This document shows positions 37,366 to 64,000 of a stretch of DNA of 64,000 nucleotides, piece after piece. Each line of letters opens with the position of its first letter. The stretch's first letter is position 1. This DNA is from an uncultured virus (IMG/VR IMGVR_UViG_3300025030_000069) (Duplodnaviria > Heunggongvirae > Uroviricota > Caudoviricetes > Crassvirales), in IMG/VR virus record IMGVR_UViG_3300025030_000069. The stretch is one strand, 5' to 3'. The notes beneath the pieces are model-generated. The model had not been told where the DNA came from. It did no database searches and saw nothing but the letters and a program-made list of their open reading frames with translations. The translations under genes and the position numbers were made by a program.

Positions 37366-37986
37366 TTAATCTTTCAAGATAATTTTATCGCTTTTTTTAT
37401 AATTGTCTTTAGCCCAAAGAGGTTGAAGATTTGTATATTTACATAATTCAATTAATTCGTTTTTATTTTTAGCTGAAGCTAATGGAATTACATGATCTAT
37501 ATGCCATAATCCATAATTCTCCCAAGTCATACCTATAGTAAATTTATTTTCAATATAGATTTTAACATTTTCAAAAGTATTGTTTAATAATTTTTTAGAT
37601 ATTTTATTTTTTCTGTATCTTTTAATTTTGAAAATATCCCAAATTCTTTTTCTTAAATTATTTCTTAATTTAAATAAAGAATCAATATTACTTCTTTCTT
37701 TAAAATGTTTTCTGCGATTTTTTAATATTTTTTCTCTATTATTTTTATAATATAATTTTGAAACTATTCGTCTTTTATTAATAGTTTTTCTATTATATTC
37801 TTTTATTTTTTCTTTATTTAATAAAGAATATTTTTTACTGTATATAGAAATTTTCTTTTTATTTCTTTTTATATATTCACGATTATCTTTATTTCTACAT
37901 TCTTTACAATAGGAAGTAACTTTATCAGCTCTTTTATGAAATTGATTTAATTCTTTGTCTATTTTACATTTAGGACAAGTTTTCAT
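37366..37986 (-). CDS. HNH homing endonuclease
   Basis: N-terminal CxxC pair; WHIDHVIPL...NLQPLWAKDN..K. Confidence 0.88.
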   Translation of the reverse strand: MKTCPKCKIDKELNQFHKRADKVTSYCKECRNKDNREYIKRNKKKISIYSKKYSLLNKEKIKEYNRKTINKRRIVSKLYYKNNREKILKNRRKHFKERSNIDSLFKLRNNLRKRIWDIFKIKRYRKNKISKKLLNNTFENVKIYIENKFTIGMTWENYGLWHIDHVIPLASAKNKNELIELCKYTNLQPLWAKDNYKKSDKIILKD

Positions 37987-52120: not shown

Positions 52121-53201
52121 GGTTGTTTGAATTAGGTTTAATTAATAAATGAATTTCTAAATTAGTAGCTGATTATATCAGCTTAACGCATACACCGTGA
52201 GTATTTAAACTCTGAAGGTTTTAGTATTTGCATGCTTAGTCTGTAGTTAATTATCTTATTCAAGGATAATTAATACAGAGGTTAAACTTTGTAGTTAGTT
52301 TCCAATACATTCAGTGTTTTAGCTGTTTCACAACAATTAGGTTACTGCAACCTGAATATTATAATTCCTTACTTATAATGATAAGAATATTAGTTATTGT
52401 TCTGATGATTGATTTTCTAAAGAATTCAATTCACACTCATTTTTTAAATCTTTAAGAAGAGATATTTCTTTGGTATGTTCGAGATTAAGAATTTTAACTA
52501 AATCACAAGCCATTGCATATATTTGTGTACTTGATTGGTTATTTCAATTAGATCCAAACCAAAAATTTAAATGTTGTTCTACATCAAATATTTTCATAGT
52601 TTCTAGGTTTTAAAGTTTCTGTTTCGATGTTCAATTACATCATCATCAGTAAGAACAATAGTTCTTAGACAGAATGTTGGATTGACTAATTTGGCTATTA
52701 AAAATGAAGAAATAGGTGAGATTATTGAGAAAATTGAATGATTGAAAAAGAGGAAATATTGAAAAAGGTGACAAATATCATATTTTATCACTCTAAAATA
52801 TGATTTAAATCATACTATTTAATTCTAAAACATGATTTAAATCATAAAAACTACTATCATCACATCAAATAGTATGATGTGATGATGAATAGTAGTAAGC
52901 TTCTTTGTTCATAAGGTACAAAGATAAACCAAATAACAGCGATTTAACATTGGTAGTTTCTTCTACCTACTATAAAGATACATAAACTCTTACTTATGAC
53001 TGCCTTGTAACATAAAGCCAACCTAGACAAGGATATAGTTGGATAAGAGTTATGATGCATTAAACCAACAAATCTCCTATCCTTATATATATGAACAAGA
53101 TTTATTGATTTATAATTAGATTAAAAAGAATAAAAGAAAGTCTACAATGGAAGACAAATGTCCTCCACTGTAAACTCTTGTACTGCTGGCCGAAGGCCAG
53201 G

Positions 53202-53462
53202 TTAAAACCGTGCTTCAGTAAGCTCGCATTTGAGCACCAAATCAAGATACTTAACTGCAATACCTGCATCATTGACAGAGTCCCTGACAAGCACAGAGAC
53301 AGGCTCTGTAATCTCAAGGACATTGTTATCAACTTTAATGAATTCTGCTGGAATACGCATAGTATTAACGCCAAATACTCTGCCTTGGAAAGCGGCAGAA
53401 TAATGAATATGCTTTTCAGAGTTTACAGTGAACTCTTTTTGTTTAATCACTTTGAGTTTCAT
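53202..53462 (-). CDS. Hypothetical protein, first gene of the leftward block
   Basis: 86-aa ORF, locally higher GC. Confidence 0.55.
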   Translation of the reverse strand: MKLKVIKQKEFTVNSEKHIHYSAAFQGRVFGVNTMRIPAEFIKVDNNVLEITEPVSVLVRDSVNDAGIAVKYLDLVLKCELTEARF

Positions 53463-53646
53463 AGGACAGTAGTTTTAATGACGGGAGACATTTCCCGCTG
53501 AAACTTAGTGGGGGTGGTTGATCGGAGGAGGATCACGCTTACAATCAAGGACTTAACTCTAAAAATTTTTAGAAAAAAAATTAAAAATAATGTAACTAAT
53601 TATCGACTGCTTCGTATAACAGTATGTAACTAATAAATATATAAAA

Positions 53647-54183
53647 ATGAAAAAATGTAATAAATGTAATCAAGAAAAACCTTTTGAATGTTTTAGAAAA
53701 GACTCAAGAGAAAAAGACGGGTATAGATATACCTGTACAGAATGTCTATTAGGAAGACTTCCACATGAAAAAGCTACAATAGAAAAGCTTTGTAAGAAAT
53801 GTAACACCATTAAACCATTAGATTCTTTTGGATTTGTGAATAAAAAAAAGAATCTGAAAAATTCAGATTGTAAACAATGTAAAAATAAAACTAAAACAGA
53901 AAAATTAAAAAATACAGGTGTAAATAAAATAAAATGTCATAAAAAAAGACTAAATAAATATCATATTACTCAAATAGAATTTAATTTATTATTAACTAAT
54001 CAAAATAATAAATGTAAAATATGTGCAACTCCTTTTATAAAAACTCCACATATAGATCATTGTCATATTACTGGAGTAGTAAGGGGGTTACTATGTCACG
54101 GATGTAATATTGCTTTAGGAGGCTTCAGAAACAATATAGAATCTCTTAAATCAGCAATTTTATATCTCGAACAATCTACCTGA
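53647..54183 (+). CDS. Endonuclease VII-like HNH nuclease
   Basis: CxxC repeats; QNNKCKIC...HIDHCHITGVVRGLLCHGCNIALG. Confidence 0.9.
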   Translation: MKKCNKCNQEKPFECFRKDSREKDGYRYTCTECLLGRLPHEKATIEKLCKKCNTIKPLDSFGFVNKKKNLKNSDCKQCKNKTKTEKLKNTGVNKIKCHKKRLNKYHITQIEFNLLLTNQNNKCKICATPFIKTPHIDHCHITGVVRGLLCHGCNIALGGFRNNIESLKSAILYLEQST

Positions 54184-54273
54184 CTAAAATACCATTTTAC
54201 CTCAAATTAACCCTCTAAACTACAAAAATTTGACAGATTTGGCTATAGGGCAGCTCACTTTTATTAAAATAAA

Positions 54274-54305
54274 TTTGGTTTATAACTATTTTTTACATAT
54301 ATTTG
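54274..54305 (+). promoter_or_regulatory. Bacteroidota-type promoter for the ncRNA/tRNA region
   Basis: TTTG-N20-TATATTTG. Confidence 0.7.
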
Positions 54306-54695
54306 CATCATAGTTACAGTTTCTCTACTGTATGTGTAAGCAGAAGCATTGATAAACTCAAGAATTAAAATAGAGTTGAAGTTATGTTTTACTATAAAAA
54401 AGGTGTACAAAAAGTATAATAAGACCTGGAATAAGACTAAGGGTTGACAGAGAAGTCCCAGGATGGGTGGAAGTGTACCGCTTATTAGAAATGAATACAT
54501 TTAAAGAAGTTAAACCTTCAATCCCAATACCTTGTATAAAATCAGGGCAGGGACTTGTGTTTCTTCTAAAGAAAGTAAAAAGAGAATCAATTAAATGTAA
54601 AATAAATTAGTAAATAAATATACTACTAATTAATCATAAAATTGTGAAATAGAGAAAAGGTATCTCATAAGTCTCAATTATATATAAAACTATAG

Positions 54696-54767
54696 GCTTT
54701 CTAAGCTTTGCTGATGAAGCCCTTACTTGTAATAAGGAAGAAGGGAGTTTGAATCTCTCAGAAAGCC
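54696..54767 (+). tRNA. tRNA-Thr(UGU)-like, degenerate
   Basis: Acceptor gctttct/agaaagc, D stem gctt/aagc, anticodon arm cctta-cttgtaa-taagg, T arm gggag-tttgaat-ctctc. U8, D-loop and T-loop are non-canonical. Confidence 0.55.
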
Positions 54768-54877
54768 CAACGGCAATGATAATTTTTGTTTTCAATGTGG
54801 TAGAGAAATAGAATTTGTAGATGTAAAATATGTAAAATAACAAAATCTAAACAAAATAAAAAAAGAAAAACAACAAT

Positions 54878-54943
54878 ATGAAATTAAATAACCATCTTCC
54901 ACAACAACAGCACCAACCCAACAATAAAGCATTGAGTGGTTAG
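54878..54943 (+). CDS. Leader peptide MKLNNHLPQQQHQPNNKALSG
   Basis: A-rich Bacteroidota-style translation initiation region. Codon run CCA CAA CAA CAG CAC CAA CCC. Overlaps the antiterminator strand. Confidence 0.75.
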   Translation: MKLNNHLPQQQHQPNNKALSG

Positions 54944-54967
54944 AAGATTATTTTCTATTTTGATATT

Positions 54968-55000
54968 AACCCTCAATCGTAAGATTAGAGGGTTTTTATT
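54968..55000 (+). terminator. Attenuator terminator immediately before tRNA-Pro
   Basis: aaccctc-aatc-GTAA-gatt-a-gagggtt-tttatt. Its 5' arm can alternatively pair with 54931-54942. Confidence 0.85.
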
Positions 55001-55002
55001 AT

Positions 55003-55075
55003 CTTACAATAGGACAATTGGTAGTCTACTACATTTGGGATGTAGAGGTTGATAGTTCGAGTCTATCTTGTAAGA
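55003..55075 (+). tRNA. tRNA-Pro(UGG)
   Basis: Acceptor cttacaa/ttgtaag, D-loop with tggta, anticodon arm ctaca-tttggga-tgtag, T arm gatag-ttcgagt-ctatc. CCA is not encoded. Confidence 0.9.
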
Positions 55076-55151
55076 CGATAGTTTTCTGATACTAATCTTA
55101 TCAAATGTGCACTATAAAGAAAGTATGACAAGCAGGGACAGACCTGTACAT

Positions 55152-55222
55152 TGCCCTTTAGTAAAATGGTATTACGTCTCCCTTTGGAGGAGAAGTTTCT
55201 TGTCCAACTCAAGAAAGGGCAT
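55152..55222 (+). tRNA. tRNA-Gln(UUG)
   Basis: Acceptor tgccctt/aagggca, anticodon arm tctcc-ctttgga-ggaga, T arm tcttg-tccaact-caaga (atypical T-loop). Confidence 0.8.
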
Positions 55223-55230
55223 CTACAAAT

Positions 55231-55262
55231 AAAAAACCATATAGAGAATTACCTCTATATGG
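55231..55262 (-). terminator. Intrinsic terminator between the tRNAs and convergent genes
   Basis: ccatatagag-gtaatt-ctctatatgg followed by T6 on the minus strand. Confidence 0.8.
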
Positions 55263-55285
55263 CCTAACCAATTAATCAATTAAAC

Positions 55286-55708
55286 TTATACTAACTTTAA
55301 CAAATTATTTAATATTTCATTTTTAATTGTCAATCTCATTTCATCTAAAGTAACTTTTCTCATTACTTCAGGATGCCTATCAATTAAATCAACTTTAATA
55401 GGATAATATTGCTCTATTTCAACACTATTCTTGTCTATTTGCGCAAGTATAGTTTTTATCCCATCAATTACTTCATCAGTAGGGTGTTTAAATTGCTTGT
55501 ATTTAAAGTTTCTATTCCACCAATGTCTGAACTTACATTTAAACTTAGTCCAATCTGATTTTAAGTTATTATACCTTATAATCATATTAATAGGTAGTTT
55601 ATATTCCAGATAAAATGATTCTGGAATACTAAACATTAATTCATTAAATGTATAATAATAAAAATATTCTTCATATTTTGAACTATACAGTTTTTCTAAA
55701 TTTCTCAT
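55286..55708 (-). CDS. Hypothetical protein
   Basis: ORF in a small leftward operon. Confidence 0.6.
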   Translation of the reverse strand: MRNLEKLYSSKYEEYFYYYTFNELMFSIPESFYLEYKLPINMIIRYNNLKSDWTKFKCKFRHWWNRNFKYKQFKHPTDEVIDGIKTILAQIDKNSVEIEQYYPIKVDLIDRHPEVMRKVTLDEMRLTIKNEILNNLLKLV

Positions 55709-55986
55709 AATGTATTTGTTAATTCAATTAATCGTTTACAATTAATATAATAAGGTTCTGTCATTTCATCAGAATTAGGGCAAAAAGATAAAGGTCTTAT
55801 ATATTTAATTACATCTTTAGTAGTAATTTTATATTCTTCTATATTATCTCCTTTTGCATGGTTGTCTATAAACTTCTGTAAATTTATACTAAATTCTTTA
55901 ATGGACATCTCTTTTGCAGGAGAAACTGTTTTTTTATCTTTCTGAATCCATATTACAGGTTCTTCTAATTTTTTAATCTTTTTCAT
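55705..55986 (-). CDS. Hypothetical protein
   Basis: ORF, translationally coupled. Confidence 0.55.
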   Translation of the reverse strand: MKKIKKLEEPVIWIQKDKKTVSPAKEMSIKEFSINLQKFIDNHAKGDNIEEYKITTKDVIKYIRPLSFCPNSDEMTEPYYINCKRLIELTNTL

Positions 55987-55990
55987 AATT

Positions 55991-56383
55991 TTATCTATTT
56001 AAAGTTTTAACAAATTCTTCATATCTTTTATCAAATGCTTTACCAGCAAGTTTCTCTTTTTCATCATCAGGATTATAAGGAGTACGAAATTCTAAATTCT
56101 GTACTCTTTCACAATGCTTAGAAGCCCTGTCTTGAGTTTCTTTATCTGTAATTGACCACATCCAATCATAATGAATATCCTTAGTTTTTGAATTTGGATA
56201 TTTGAAAACTGGCTTTTCATATTTTACTTTTTCTCCACACCAAGGTTTAACTATTCTTTCTCTTTTACTTCTATCTACAAATACAGAAGTTCCATCAACA
56301 TCTTCATAGAAGTAAGTATCTTTCTTACCTTCTATAATTTCTAATGCTTTAACTAAAGATTCAACTTCATTTTCTTCTTTCAT
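55991..56383 (-). CDS. Hypothetical protein
   Basis: ORF. Confidence 0.6.
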   Translation of the reverse strand: MKEENEVESLVKALEIIEGKKDTYFYEDVDGTSVFVDRSKRERIVKPWCGEKVKYEKPVFKYPNSKTKDIHYDWMWSITDKETQDRASKHCERVQNLEFRTPYNPDDEKEKLAGKAFDKRYEEFVKTLNR

Positions 56384-56615
56384 ATTATTTCTTTTTAATT
56401 ATAATTCTATTTTTCCATAAACTACTTGCTATTTCCCCATTAATTTTTGCTTGTTGTTTAATTTCATCTATTAAATCATTAATCTTATTATTTAATTTCT
56501 TTTCTTCTTCTTCAGTCATTTTAAATTAATATCTTTAATAATTAATACAACTCCTATTCCTATTACAACTAATACCCATAATATTTCCAAAAAATAAAAT
56601 ATATCATTTATCATA

Positions 56616-56819
56616 TTATTTCTTTTTAATTTCTTTATTTAACCAATTAACTGTAAATCTTCTACAAGTATCACAAGTTACTTTACCTAAATTACCACCT
56701 ATCTCTCTCGATGCTATCTTAATTAGATATCTGAAAGCAGGTCTTGTAACTGCACTATAACCTGATTCACAAACTTTTAGTTGTTTTTTTATTTCTTTTA
56801 TTTCTGATTCACTTAACAT
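56616..56819 (-). CDS. Small Cys-containing protein
   Basis: First gene after the minus-strand promoter; CDTC. Confidence 0.55.
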   Translation of the reverse strand: MLSESEIKEIKKQLKVCESGYSAVTRPAFRYLIKIASREIGGNLGKVTCDTCRRFTVNWLNKEIKKK

Positions 56820-56823
56820 TTTA

Positions 56824-56886
56824 CAAAGATAAAAATAATTTTCTTAAAAACAAATTTGGTAGGAAGAAATATTTTATTTATATTTG
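56824..56886. promoter_or_regulatory. Back-to-back divergent Bacteroidota-type promoters
   Basis: Minus strand: TTTG (56851-54) N19 TATCTTTG (56824-31). Plus strand: TTTG (56855-58) N20 TATATTTG (56879-86). Confidence 0.75.
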
Positions 56887-56901
56887 CCGTTTTTAACAGA
56901 T

Positions 56902-57207
56902 ATGAACTTTACAACCAAAGATAAATCAATAGTTATTTACAAAGACAAAGAAGTCATTGGACTTAAACTTAACTGTGGGCCAGGATTAGTAGGAGAAAAA
57001 GATTTTAAAGAATTTCTTGGAGAATGTTCTTGTAATCTTAATGTTATCTTAATGGCTGAAGATAACCAACTTACTTGTAAATTTTATGATGAAGAAACCG
57101 GAGAAATATACTTCCACTTCGACAAACCCATTTCTTATAATACTATAAGTATGTGGTTTAAAGATGAAGATTTAATATTTCCTTTAAAAGATTTGGTAGA
57201 TACCTAA
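56902..57207 (+). CDS. Hypothetical protein
   Basis: ATG at 56902 is preferred, because the track's TTG start lies inside the -7 box. Confidence 0.6.
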   Translation: MNFTTKDKSIVIYKDKEVIGLKLNCGPGLVGEKDFKEFLGECSCNLNVILMAEDNQLTCKFYDEETGEIYFHFDKPISYNTISMWFKDEDLIFPLKDLVDT

Positions 57208-57223
57208 ATTATAATTATCTTTG
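57192..57223 (+). promoter_or_regulatory. Bacteroidota-type promoter
   Basis: TTTG-N20-TATCTTTG, 16 nt before the ATG at 57240. Confidence 0.7.
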
Positions 57224-57239
57224 TCAAAATTATTAGCAA

Positions 57240-57593
57240 ATGGAGAAAAAAATTAATATAAAAACTACAAAAGAGAAGATATTCAGACAATATTTGGCTG
57301 TGCTTTCACCAATCATAAAACTCAGGGAGAAGGAATTAGATGTTCTTGGTCAATTATTATATTCCAACAATGAACTCAAACATATTGAAGAAGAAAATAG
57401 ATGGATTATCATAATGAGTTATGAAAATAAGAAAAAGATGCAGGATATAATTGGATTATCTTCAGCATATTGGGATAATTGCTGTACAGAATTAAGAAAA
57501 AAAGGAATATTAAAGAATAATAAGGTAGAGAAGAACTTTCTATTTTATCCTGATAAAAATATTAAAGTAATTTTTGATTTTATAATAGAATGA
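57240..57593 (+). CDS. Putative winged-helix DNA-binding protein
   Basis: LREKELDVL...IGLSSAYWDNCCTELRKKGIL. Confidence 0.5.
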   Translation: MEKKINIKTTKEKIFRQYLAVLSPIIKLREKELDVLGQLLYSNNELKHIEEENRWIIIMSYENKKKMQDIIGLSSAYWDNCCTELRKKGILKNNKVEKNFLFYPDKNIKVIFDFIIE

Positions 57594-61308: not shown

Positions 61309-61924
61309 AAAAATAAGTAGAAGCGAATTATATTTTCAAAGAAGAAGAGAAGAGGCTTCAAAATTAAATATAGGAAAAATTATAGATAATTGTACTATAA
61401 TTAAACATTTAAGATTTGAAAAAGTTTCAACATTAAAAAACGGAAAAGAAAAAAAGACTTCTGTTTATTTATTTAAATGTCATTGTGGAAATACATTTGA
61501 AAAAAAACTTGGAATTAAACAAATTTATAGTTGCGGTTGTATTACAAAACAATTAATGTCTTTACCAAGACCAAAAAATATAAAAAAAGATTCTTCTTTT
61601 AATGAATTATACAGTTCTTATAAAAGTAGAGCATCTTATACATTAAAATTATTTACTTTGACTAAAGAAGAATTTAAAAAAATTACTTCTTCAAATTGTA
61701 TTTATTGTGGAATCAATCCTATTCAAAAACTTAATACTAAAATAAATAATCAAAGTAAAAATATTTATTATTACAATGGTATAGATAGAAAAGATTCTTC
61801 TAAAGGTTATATTCTTGATAATTGTCAACCTTGTTGTGAAATTTGTAATAAAGCAAAAAGAGATTTACCAGAAGATACTTTTATTATATGGTTAAAAAGA
61901 ATTGCTAATAAATGGAAAGAATAA
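61292..61924 (+). CDS. HNH homing endonuclease inserted before terL
   Basis: FKCHCG...SCGC...CIYCG...NGIDRKDSSKGY..DNCQPCCEICNKAK. Confidence 0.88.
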   Translation: MKMEYRKISRSELYFQRRREEASKLNIGKIIDNCTIIKHLRFEKVSTLKNGKEKKTSVYLFKCHCGNTFEKKLGIKQIYSCGCITKQLMSLPRPKNIKKDSSFNELYSSYKSRASYTLKLFTLTKEEFKKITSSNCIYCGINPIQKLNTKINNQSKNIYYYNGIDRKDSSKGYILDNCQPCCEICNKAKRDLPEDTFIIWLKRIANKWKE

Positions 61925-64000
61925 TGGTATTAAATAACTATCAAACACAACTTACTGAAGAATATTTAAAAACTATTCCTGCTGCTGTAAAAGCAGACTT
62001 ACTCGACTATATAGAAAATATAAAATTTATTCAAAATTTAACTTCTATTAATAGACCTCATCTTATAGATACTCCAAAAGATGAAACTGGAAAAGTAATA
62101 GTTGATTTAGTTAATCCACACAGATTAACTGATATGGATTACTTTAGGCAACCTGCTATTTATTTTGAAAGACATAATTGTTATACTAAAATTCCACCTA
62201 ATAAAAATCCTCAATCTGAATATGCTAAATTTTGGAGAGAAGAAAAAAGAAGATGGGCAGAAGGATTAACAAGACCTGATGGAGAATGGATTCCTGGACC
62301 ATATTATTTCTATCTTAACTATTCTCCTATATGGAGAGTGGATATGAATGAAGAAGATGTTAAAAAAGGTAAAAAGATTGCAAAAAGAATTAAAAATTTC
62401 GGAGATGTATATTTAGGTGATTATCTATTCTTTCATTATCTTCATCAAGCTCATAATGGAGGTAAGTATAATAACTTTCAAGGAGGTAGTCACGCAAAAC
62501 TTTTGAAGACAAGAGGTTGCGGATTTTCTTTCAAGATGGGGGCTATTTCTCCTTGTACTATGTATGTAGAAGAAGGACTTCCATGTTTTCATATAGCATC
62601 TGATAAATCATTTTTATTGGGAGAAAAAGGAGTATATGGCAAAGTAGTAGATACTCTTGATTGGATAGCAGAAAATACACCATTTTCTAAATTAAGAATT
62701 ATAGATACTCCTTTAGAAAAACAATTAGGATATAAAGATGAATATGGTATTAAACAAGGTTTAAAATCTACTGTATTTGGAATATCAATTAAAGATGATC
62801 CTGATAAAGCCAGAGGAGCAAGAGGACCACTTATTCATTATGAAGAAGATGGAGTAATGCCTAATTTGGAAAATGCCTGGAACGTAAATAGAGCAGCAGT
62901 TGAAGCAGGAGGTATTGTATTTGGATTAATGATTGCAGGTGGATGTGTTTGTGCAGGAACTAAAGTATGGAATAACAATGGAGATTTAATAAATATAGAA
63001 AATTTAAAACAAGAAGAAGGTATTTTAGGATTCGATGGAGAAAAAGTATCAAAAGAAAATATTTCTTATTGGCAAGAATCAAAAGATAAACCTTGTTATA
63101 AAATCACAACTAATACTTTTAGAACTTTAGAATGTAGTGAAGATCATCCTATTTTATGGAGTAAATTAGCTTTAAATTATACTCCAAGAATGAAAGATTC
63201 TGACGGAAAATATTTAGAAAAAAGAGTAATTACAAAAAAAGTTATTTTTAAACAAACTAAAGATATAAAAATAGGAGAACAAATAGCAATTATTGATGAA
63301 GTAAATATATTTGGAAATAAAAAAATGTGGGAACCACGAGTAGTAGGATGGTTAATTGGAGATGGTTCTTATGGTAAAGATAAAACTCCTGTATTATCTA
63401 ATTGTGAAATTGAAATTAATAATTACATTGAAAATAATTTAAATACTGTAATTGAAAAACAATATATTACAAAATCAGATAATACTAAATTATATAAAGA
63501 AACACGGATCAAAGATATTTGTCCCAAGCTAAGAGAATTGGGTATTTATGGGCAAACAAAATTAAAAAAAACTCTTCCATTAAATATTCATTCTTATTTA
63601 AAAGAAGATTTGCAAAATTTTATAGGAGGACTTTATGATACTGATGGACATATTTCAAAAGAAGGAAAAATAAGTTTATCTTCAATGTCTTTAACTCTAT
63701 TACAAGAAGTTCAACTTCTTTTGCAAAAATTTGGAATTCATAGTAATATTAATAGGCATAAGAAAAATATAAACAATCCTAAAGATAAAAATGATTATTT
63801 TGTTCTTGAAATTTCAAGGAAAAACAGTGTATTAAATTTCGTAAAAAATATAACATTATTTCCAAAAGAAAAACAAAAAAGATTAAATACATTTAATAAT
63901 TTATATTTAAATAGAAAAGATAGTCATAGCTTAAAAATAAAAGGAATTAATTTTGAAAGAGTAACAAATATTGAATATATTGGAATTAAACCAGTTTATA
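61924..64000 (+). CDS. terL: Terminase large subunit (crAss-like), 3'-truncated, contains an intein; absent from the ORF track
   Basis: ATG at 61924 overlaps the HNH stop, and the frame stays open to the window end. Motifs YYFYLNY, Walker A-like LKTRGCGFS, KARGARG, Walker B HYEEDG, and MIAGG. Confidence 0.9.
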   Translation, partial: MVLNNYQTQLTEEYLKTIPAAVKADLLDYIENIKFIQNLTSINRPHLIDTPKDETGKVIVDLVNPHRLTDMDYFRQPAIYFERHNCYTKIPPNKNPQSEYAKFWREEKRRWAEGLTRPDGEWIPGPYYFYLNYSPIWRVDMNEEDVKKGKKIAKRIKNFGDVYLGDYLFFHYLHQAHNGGKYNNFQGGSHAKLLKTRGCGFSFKMGAISPCTMYVEEGLPCFHIASDKSFLLGEKGVYGKVVDTLDWIAENTPFSKLRIIDTPLEKQLGYKDEYGIKQGLKSTVFGISIKDDPDKARGARGPLIHYEEDGVMPNLENAWNVNRAAVEAGGIVFGLMIAGGCVCAGTKVWNNNGDLINIENLKQEEGILGFDGEKVSKENISYWQESKDKPCYKITTNTFRTLECSEDHPILWSKLALNYTPRMKDSDGKYLEKRVITKKVIFKQTKDIKIGEQIAIIDEVNIFGNKKMWEPRVVGWLIGDGSYGKDKTPVLSNCEIEINNYIENNLNTVIEKQYITKSDNTKLYKETRIKDICPKLRELGIYGQTKLKKTLPLNIHSYLKEDLQNFIGGLYDTDGHISKEGKISLSSMSLTLLQEVQLLLQKFGIHSNINRHKKNINNPKDKNDYFVLEISRKNSVLNFVKNITLFPKEKQKRLNTFNNLYLNRKDSHSLKIKGINFERVTNIEYIGIKPVY
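62944..64000 (+). mobile_element. Intein with a LAGLIDADG endonuclease in TerL
   Basis: Block A CVCAGTKV after 340 extein codons; block B LECSEDHPIL; blocks C and E GWLIGDGS and GGLYDTDG; block F ...IEYIGIKPVY at the window edge. Confidence 0.9.

Follow-up and report, generated by a model that had tools for sequence, protein, structure and literature searches.

How would a phage match the supply of its own tRNAs to need, when the timing and dosing of such tRNAs are, to our knowledge, largely unknown? The question is raised by positions 54,878 to 55,222 of a 64,000-nucleotide stretch of DNA (the whole of it hereafter called the window) from an uncultured virus of the Crassvirales (IMG/VR record IMGVR_UViG_3300025030_000069). 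There, a short upstream open reading frame (uORF) with Pro and Gln codons is followed by an intrinsic terminator, and the terminator by genes for tRNA-Pro(UGG) and tRNA-Gln(UUG). A first-pass annotation of the bare sequence had read this layout as an attenuator, in which a ribosome stalled on the Pro and Gln codons permits read-through into the tRNA genes. Our sequence analysis makes it likely that the element is a ribosome-mediated (leader-peptide) transcription attenuator regulating both tRNAs. The reading is supported by covariation between leaders and tRNA sets in related phages, by the placing of the antiterminator in five of six leaders and by the lack of space for a promoter behind the terminator.

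Leader, terminator and tRNA genes

The elements on which the argument turns are these:

54840-54877, plus strand: A-rich stretch before the leader ATG, unpaired in the fold and without a Shine-Dalgarno sequence, like the genes of this phage
54878-54943, plus strand: leader ORF, 21 sense codons, predicted peptide MKLNNHLPQQQHQPNNKALSG, stop codon TAG
54899-54919, plus strand: sensor codons CCA CAA CAA CAG CAC CAA CCC (leader codons 8-14, six of the seven for Pro or Gln)
55003-55076, plus strand: tRNA-Pro(UGG), first of the two putatively regulated genes (ARAGORN; Rfam 62.9 bits)
55152-55223, plus strand: tRNA-Gln(UUG), the second (ARAGORN; Rfam 56 bits)

The 21-codon uORF and its run of Pro and Gln codons are present as the annotation had claimed, the complete series of codons being ATG AAA TTA AAT AAC CAT CTT CCA CAA CAA CAG CAC CAA CCC AAC AAT AAA GCA TTG AGT GGT TAG. 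It is the sole ATG ORF of 10-60 codons with a stop 30-120 nt upstream of tRNA-Pro, and the A-rich, unpaired region before its putative start resembles those of real genes of the phage. Pro or Gln is specified by 6 of 20 leader codons, compared to 1.3 expected (p 0.0012), and no codon is for Thr. A run with six Pro or Gln codons out of seven occurs nowhere else across the six frames of the 64-kb window, and a C+A tract of this kind is likewise unique there.

The terminator was also found where the annotation had put it, directly before tRNA-Pro(UGG) and then tRNA-Gln(UUG), with a U tract running to 55002 and the two tRNAs starting at 55003 and 55152. Its 11-bp stem with one bulged A (54968-54978 / 54983-54994) closes a GUAA loop and is followed by the U tract TTTTTATTAT; the energy is -13.1 kcal/mol, or -17.0 kcal/mol with the outer pairs. 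On the reverse strand no T tract follows the hairpin. The site is among ~13 strong hairpin-plus-T-tract sites of the window and sits ~2 nt before two same-strand tRNA genes, its end lying ~1-2 nt upstream of tRNA-Pro(UGG). A consensus-based terminator scan did not pick up the hairpin at 54968-55002, because of the stem bulge.

A separate promoter serving the tRNAs independently of the terminator, which the annotation had named as a competing possibility, has no room here: the gap between terminator and tRNA-Pro is only 2 nt, so that a promoter cannot fit in it. No sigma-70-type promoter was found between terminator and tRNA, and promoter-like matches numbered 19, as against 16.6 in shuffles.

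As an observation on the leader stop codon, read-through of the TAG (54941), as in TAG-recoding relatives, would extend the frame to a TAA at 54980-54982 inside the terminator loop, and the ribosome would then unwind the terminator 5′ arm. No suppressor tRNA was found in the window.

Leaders and tRNA sets in related phages

A close homologue of the leader was not found by blastn of 54600-55300 against GenBank phages. The exact leader and tRNA-Pro patterns had no match in IMG/VR, a search of IMG/VR with the neighbour proteins of the leader region was blank, and so were searches of JGI metagenomes and GTDB genomes for leader homologues with the terminase large subunit (TerL) alone. A TerL alignment in JGI metagenomes gave 7 loci of at most 54% identity, none with tRNA-Pro or tRNA-Gln. 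Because a close leader homologue was not found, we surveyed TerL relatives for leader-terminator units. Searching IMG/VR with an alignment of TerL and two distant relatives (A1) yielded 291 relatives, of which the top 80 (35-57% identity) were kept. A tRNA search in all 80 records found tRNAs in 22 of 50 records and in 24 of the 30 more distant ones, and 85 tRNA regions were taken. ARAGORN and a gap rule defined the array heads (48 and 54 in the relatives, 2 in the window). The survey left out four Rfam matches that fell short of the threshold, one tRNA without upstream DNA at the start of its contig and two matches in G004 that ARAGORN did not call.

Six further units, each with a short ORF and a strong U-tract terminator 1-12 nt before the first tRNA, were found among the 80 relatives; their terminators have energies of -14 to -20 kcal/mol and stand 4-12 nt from that tRNA. 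They occur in only three phages, whose TerL is 40-52% identical to that of the window; no leader-terminator unit stands at any of the 54 heads from the 30 more distant records. The units are distributed as follows:

G018, locus L097: one unit
G025, locus L100: three units
G051, locus L115: two units

The leaders and the tRNAs behind them are:

Leader MKIITQYQFICPMPFSAILGAVMCII: Pro Phe Met Ile Gln
Leader MNTSLLHTRLELQPEQHSALGGILIV (core ...LLHTRLELQPEQH...): Pro Glu Gln His Leu Leu Arg
Leader MKTTCYLFSFWSLLTSVRD (core ...CYLFSFWSLLTS...): Leu Leu Phe Ser Trp Cys Ser
Leader MSNFNPNSNCYFWSYFDHRVIIV (core ...NFNPNSNCYFWSYF...): Tyr Asn Trp Phe Cys, the Tyr tRNA by Rfam only (31.3 bits), its anticodon GUA read from the alignment
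Leader MRTMNNIHTVEQPKADTIRGRALAM: a block of 15 tRNAs, with 22 of the 24 leader residues within that block's set

To compare the units, which are analogues and not alignable homologues, each leader was scored against its own and against swapped tRNA sets, with the pooled leader composition as background. For six units the own pairing was the best of 720 permutations, with an excess of 32.6 as compared to at most 8.7 in any full derangement. With all seven units, from four phages, it was again the best, now out of 5040 permutations. This test had used an internal ATG for three leaders and a tRNA set extended across gaps for two, and for that reason it was repeated under a strict rule (the first ATG taken, an ORF of 10-60 codons with its stop 30-120 nt ahead of the tRNA, and tRNA sets limited to contiguous genes). 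The rule left 88 usable heads, 41 of them with a candidate uORF, and exactly one candidate at each of the six terminator-bearing heads. Among the 41, these six take ranks 1, 2, 3, 5, 6 and 12 (Mann-Whitney p 1.5e-4), and the head in the window is second. Three units are individually weak under this rule: L115a (p 0.076), L100b (p 0.12) and L100a (p 0.37). The survey of related phages for uORF-terminator units with covarying codons and tRNAs, which the annotation had proposed, was positive by unit count (six), by permutation and by rank.

tRNA-Pro(UGG) is the first gene after four of the seven units (window 55003, L097 head, L100 3446 and L115 head 764). The tRNA-Pro genes behind those four leaders are alike in only 41-50 of 74 bases, and recent copying of one unit from another is thereby rejected.

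The triplets CCA, CAA and ACA of the C+A tract are complementary to the anticodons of the three neighbouring tRNAs, and the tract could for this reason be imagined to bind them directly, in the manner of a T-box, and to set the terminator without translation. We hold this to be extremely improbable. No T-box match was obtained from Rfam even in a lax search (E up to 10), the conserved T-box sequence and specifier-loop fold are absent, and the logic would be feed-forward, not homeostatic. The leaders of the relatives, moreover, are ordinary mixed-codon ORFs and not displays of triplets.

Other structures were noted near tRNA genes of the relatives. In G025, a 12-codon ORF MITSIKHKKKNY (L100 687-728) lies between tRNA-Ala and a tRNA-Lys/Ile/Gly group and is followed, 5 nt before tRNA-Lys, by a hairpin that has an energy of -9.5 kcal/mol and lacks a U tract; another small unit may be present here. 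Three of the nearest relatives (L091 690-740; L092, minus strand; L093 720-770) have in common a hairpin ...AAGCCTCTTGC...GCAACGTAAC... inside a 7-bp outer stem, 8-10 nt before tRNAs, which is accompanied by neither a U tract nor a leader ORF. In the more distant relatives, many suppressor and Met tRNAs also have a hairpin containing CGTAAC upstream of them.

Alternative pairings and the proposed switch

Four regions of the leader RNA, numbered as in the classical attenuators, take part in the pairings considered here:

54886-54902, plus strand: region 1, forming the 5′ strand of the 1:2 helix (duplex energy -10.0 kcal/mol; by itself not significant)
54931-54954, plus strand: region 2, which spans the TAG; 54931-54942 pairs with region 3 (antiterminator) and 54936-54954 with region 1
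54967-54978, plus strand: region 3, terminator 5′ arm, from folding
54983-55002, plus strand: region 4, terminator 3′ arm plus U tract TTTTTATTAT, from folding

The antiterminator described in the annotation, between the 3′ end of the uORF and the terminator 5′ arm, was recovered as an 11-bp helix of -12.8 kcal/mol (54931-54942 : 54967-54977). Among 4000 random 81-nt fragments from the phage, 1.4% matched or beat this strength, as did 0.13% of 4000 shuffles. When the RNA is folded to 54982 only, that is with the 3′ arm not yet made, the 2:3 helix is the minimum-energy structure (-12.4 kcal/mol). A ribosome with its A site at 54899-54916 (CCA through CAA-54914) covers region 1 and leaves region 2 free; one that has reached the TAG covers region 2. 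Folding of the whole unit (54870-55003) gives a 5′ hairpin (1:2) and the terminator, with an energy of -25.7 kcal/mol (z -4.08; 0 of 200 shuffles as stable).

The position of the antiterminator relative to the stop codon recurs in the relatives. In five of the six leaders tested (the window and four of five analogues), the best partner of the terminator 5′ arm lies at most 25 nt before the stop codon or across it, with shuffle p values of 0.021, 0.007, <0.001, 0.001 and 0.002. The distance from stop codon to terminator is 17-31 nt in all six.

The fold also lends itself to a different explanation, in which 54830-55002 is a small regulatory RNA with an untranslated ORF, the unpaired C+A-rich loop acting as the seed and the terminator as its own 3′ end. 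In the minimum-energy fold the C+A tract, unique in the window, does occupy the open loop of the 5′ hairpin and the terminator follows, as in many small RNAs. No convincing target was obtained, the best plus-strand duplex in the window (-18.9 kcal/mol) being not distinctive, and there was no Rfam match. Such an RNA would leave unexplained both the placing of region 2 at the stop codon and the fact that the relatives' units encode differing amino-acid sets matched to their tRNAs, and we give it only a slim chance.

In the attenuation mechanism that we favour, RNA polymerase would transcribe the 21-codon leader with a ribosome behind it. If CCA, CAA, CAG and CCC were decoded fast, the ribosome would arrive at the TAG (54941) and cover region 2 (54931-54954). 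With region 2 masked, regions 3 and 4 would form the terminator, and transcription would end in the U tract just before tRNA-Pro. Under slow decoding the ribosome would instead stall at 54899-54919, where it would cover region 1 and leave region 2 free. Region 2 would then pair with region 3 before region 4 is synthesized, no terminator would form and the polymerase would enter both tRNA genes. RNase P would cut the leader off the read-through transcript. The outcome would be a negative feedback loop that fits the supply of both tRNAs to demand. That the leader is translated, that polymerase terminates or reads through in vivo and that the response has this sign are predictions of the scheme.

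What would make decoding slow is presumed. An anticodon nuclease or tRNA depletion as the trigger is speculation; a nuclease is plausible, given that defences aimed at tRNAs are countered by phage tRNAs, and three reports describe phage tRNAs that rescue infection from tRNA-cleaving defences (PMC10264068, PMC11464382, PMC11555353). A bolder proposal covers all units together: codon-matched 'test' ORFs would gauge decoding speed, detect loss of host tRNAs (through codon-usage mismatch, anticodon nucleases or other tRNA-targeting defences) and trigger exactly the replacement tRNAs needed. They would amount to a counter-defence sensor working block by block, and no tRNA gene is known to have one of this kind. 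We regard this as possible but doubtful.

Several observations weigh against attenuation in the window, and the first come from folding. The annotation had suggested folding the unit with and without the ribosome footprint. At equilibrium, the terminator (-17.0 kcal/mol) persists under all six ribosome masks, and the 2:3 helix wins when the RNA ends at 54982. Because the terminator wins at equilibrium under every mask, antitermination must be kinetic, as in the classical model. The 1:2-type helix, which the annotation called possible, is seen in the minimum-energy fold; taken alone, its stability (-7.9 kcal/mol, z -1.06) does not exceed chance, 30 of 200 shuffles folding as well. Since 1:2 is weaker than 2:3, the untranslated state is not clearly 'off'. 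Lastly, two of eight control terminators of the window have an equally good upstream complement.

That the terminator always wins at equilibrium would also suit its being overridden in trans, for instance by an antiterminator protein of the phage or by a modified polymerase, so that early tRNA-Thr is separated from later tRNA-Pro and tRNA-Gln, the ORF being uninvolved. The several terminators that stand immediately upstream of genes would fit a general antitermination programme of this sort. We nonetheless judge it very unlikely as the explanation: no antiterminator gene was identified among 20 proteins scanned, and the codon matching in the window and in six other leaders is left unexplained. 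Factor-dependent antitermination may act as an additional layer.

The remaining points against attenuation concern the leader and its context. A close homologue of the window leader, which would show conservation or compensatory changes directly, was not found in the collections searched. The architecture is missing in 43 of 46 tRNA-bearing relatives, including the nearest ones (53-57% TerL identity), and one unit of the seven, L100a, lacks both codon enrichment under the strict rule and a placed antiterminator (p 0.48). The sensor codons number only six, CAG and CCC require wobble, and CCC, CAG, CAC and AAC are rare in the genes of this phage; slow decoding of Pro codons, besides, has causes other than tRNA supply. 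In two of its three frames the C+A tract would be read as codons of the three neighbouring tRNAs, so that the reading frame contributes little evidence; only the Pro/Gln frame has an ATG. No promoter belonging to the leader itself was identified, the nearest good candidate box standing 570 nt away on the upstream side. A 21-codon ORF alone is ordinary, 58 ORFs of at least 20 aa overlapping the 4.5 kb of 53000-57500. Finally, terminators immediately upstream of co-oriented genes occur elsewhere in the phage (38030-37997 and 28519-28500), and leaky terminators may be a habit of it.

The last two points, the plenty of short ORFs in AT-rich DNA and the recurrence of terminators right before co-oriented genes, together with the complements of the control terminators, can be assembled into a simpler account. 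An ordinary leaky terminator, or a 3′-end stabiliser of the upstream tRNA-Thr unit, would stand beside a chance ORF, and tRNA-Pro and tRNA-Gln would be transcribed by constitutive read-through. A relative offers an example of a plain terminator in such a place, that before tRNA-Met in L099, which merely ends a long gene and is not a leader unit. This account leaves unexplained why a unique Pro/Gln run lies at this very spot, why leaders and tRNA sets covary in seven units and why the terminator's partner is placed at the stop codon in five of six leaders; we consider it unlikely.

Genomic setting and comparison with known systems

The tRNA region (54696-55223, plus strand) is flanked on one side by an endonuclease VII gene (53647-54183) and on the other by a minus-strand operon that converges on it (56819-55286). 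Three further features belong to it:

54274-54305, plus strand: candidate promoter of the tRNA unit (TTTG, 20 nt, TATATTTG), proposed from its -33/-7 layout of the Bacteroidota type
54696-54768, plus strand: tRNA-Thr(UGU), an ARAGORN call, upstream of the leader
55234-55265: 14-bp hairpin closing the tRNA unit (-15.7 kcal/mol), followed on the minus strand by TTTTTTATT and forming there the terminator of the converging operon 56819-55286

The promoter motif is not enriched in the window (114 found, 122 expected). Between the candidate promoter and tRNA-Thr we noted a 385-nt stretch of higher GC (54312-54695) with a possible 39-aa ORF (ATG 54491); its fold is not significant (z -1.45) and it has no Rfam match. 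tRNA-Thr itself is beyond the control of the leader because it lies upstream. It was not listed by Rfam at E up to 10, and its D loop is without the usual GG.

The window is AT-rich (22-31% GC) and carries, among others, TerL, replication genes and an ORF of 4734 aa. Its genes suit genetic code table 11, with stop codons TAA 32, TGA 12 and TAG 2 in 46 genes. An alternative code was considered and rejected: reading TGA or TAG as sense gives no meaningful lengthening of genes, and gene overlaps agree with table 11. At all 47 listed gene starts a Shine-Dalgarno sequence is absent and the upstream region is A/T-rich. TAnnTTTG boxes, which are of the Bacteroidota promoter type, stand ~20 nt upstream of several of these starts. 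The DNA of the window is present in four public sequencing runs, all of DNA and from a single groundwater study; no RNA run containing it was found among the public runs searched. In contigs from two of the groundwater runs the leader is variant-free, and one contig covers 51000-56268 with 0 differences.

Some side observations were made elsewhere in this phage and its relatives. On the minus strand, 38097-37987 is the 5′ untranslated region of a gene for a Cys-rich, nuclease-like protein of 206 aa (37366-37986), with a promoter-like TTTG...TACATTTG. A terminator there (AACCCCTTTGTAG / CTACAAAGGGGTT plus a U tract), whose end is 3 nt upstream of the ATG, is in competition with a 22-nt inverted repeat. 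The region looks like a second terminator/antiterminator leader, and it contains no ORF of at least 20 aa. Within TerL (61912-63999) there is an intein-like insert that contains a LAGLIDADG domain (Pfam 63.3 bits); the flanking Cys and His-Asn motifs are conserved among relatives. In the distant relatives L001 (9238-12420) and L002 (9989-13204), TAG is sense: their TerL genes contain 13-14 in-frame TAG codons, and ~120 nt upstream of TAG-recoded TerL stands a tRNA whose anticodon is CUA (L002 9801-9873); the window TerL has no in-frame TAG. In the relative G002, a tmRNA-like sequence lies beside a tRNA at the record end (L006 1620-1800, minus strand); ARAGORN did not call it.

If the attenuator reading is true, tRNA supply would be subject to a direct feedback loop, with sensor codons read by the very tRNAs that are controlled, and a textbook mechanism would be extended to a new class of targets. 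Units of this type would provide a simple sequence signature predicting which codons are limiting for a phage in its host, and compact codon-specific parts for synthetic circuits. The window unit, with two tRNAs, is the simplest case found and hence the easiest to test. The annotation knew of no described attenuator of tRNA genes. Our literature search agrees: no leader-peptide attenuator of tRNA genes was found in it, its coverage being that of papers other than subscription-only and old scanned ones. Among the leader families of Rfam there was no member match either, the best being His_leader at 17 bits against a threshold of 49 (E 0.9).

The closest architectural models are the attenuators of enterobacterial amino-acid operons (trpL, hisL, leuL and pheL, and the multivalent leaders thrL and ilvGMEDA). 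With those of the trpL/hisL type the window unit shares a short translated leader (here predicted) rich in sensor codons, a terminator immediately upstream of the regulated genes, and an antiterminator that excludes the terminator and has its upstream arm where a ribosome sitting on the stop codon would mask it. The energies are of similar order to those of the trp attenuator, and in both cases 3:4 is more stable than 2:3. The leaders of the related phages are multivalent, as are those of thr and ilv. Unlike the amino-acid operon attenuators, the window unit is phage-borne, has no Shine-Dalgarno sequence and has a weak 1:2 hairpin. Above all, the former control biosynthetic enzymes, whereas here tRNAs would be controlled, so that the sensor would read the supply of the molecules that it controls.

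Also comparable is the pheST operon attenuator of Escherichia coli, in which a leader peptide (pheM) controls an aminoacyl-tRNA synthetase. It resembles the window unit in placing a translation component that serves the sensed codons under leader-peptide control; its target is the protein enzyme that charges the tRNA, whereas in the window it would be the tRNA gene itself. T-box riboswitches are similar in that a terminator/antiterminator switch reports the state of a specific tRNA through its codon. Unlike the window unit, they bind the tRNA directly without a ribosome, respond to uncharged tRNA and control synthetase and amino-acid genes.

Relief of a terminator by a ribosome stalled on a short leader ORF is also known from the antibiotic-sensing leader peptides of mef/mel and msrD, according to the reports on them (PMC4335068, PMC10314930). 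There the stall comes from a ribosome-bound drug, and in the window unit it would come from slow decoding of particular codons. The nearest published concept that we found is the trn operon of Anabaena sp. PCC 7120, a spare set of tRNAs that is described as silent and induced when translation is impaired (PMC8421152, PMC10272220). The words 'attenuat', 'leader' and 'terminator' are absent from PMC8421152. The same sources present TrcR as a ribbon-helix-helix repressor binding direct repeats over the -10 box and start site (PMC8421152, PMC10272220). Both systems would keep tRNA genes silent until translation is impaired; the Anabaena operon does so through a promoter repressor and with a global response, unlike the codon-specific one predicted for the window unit.

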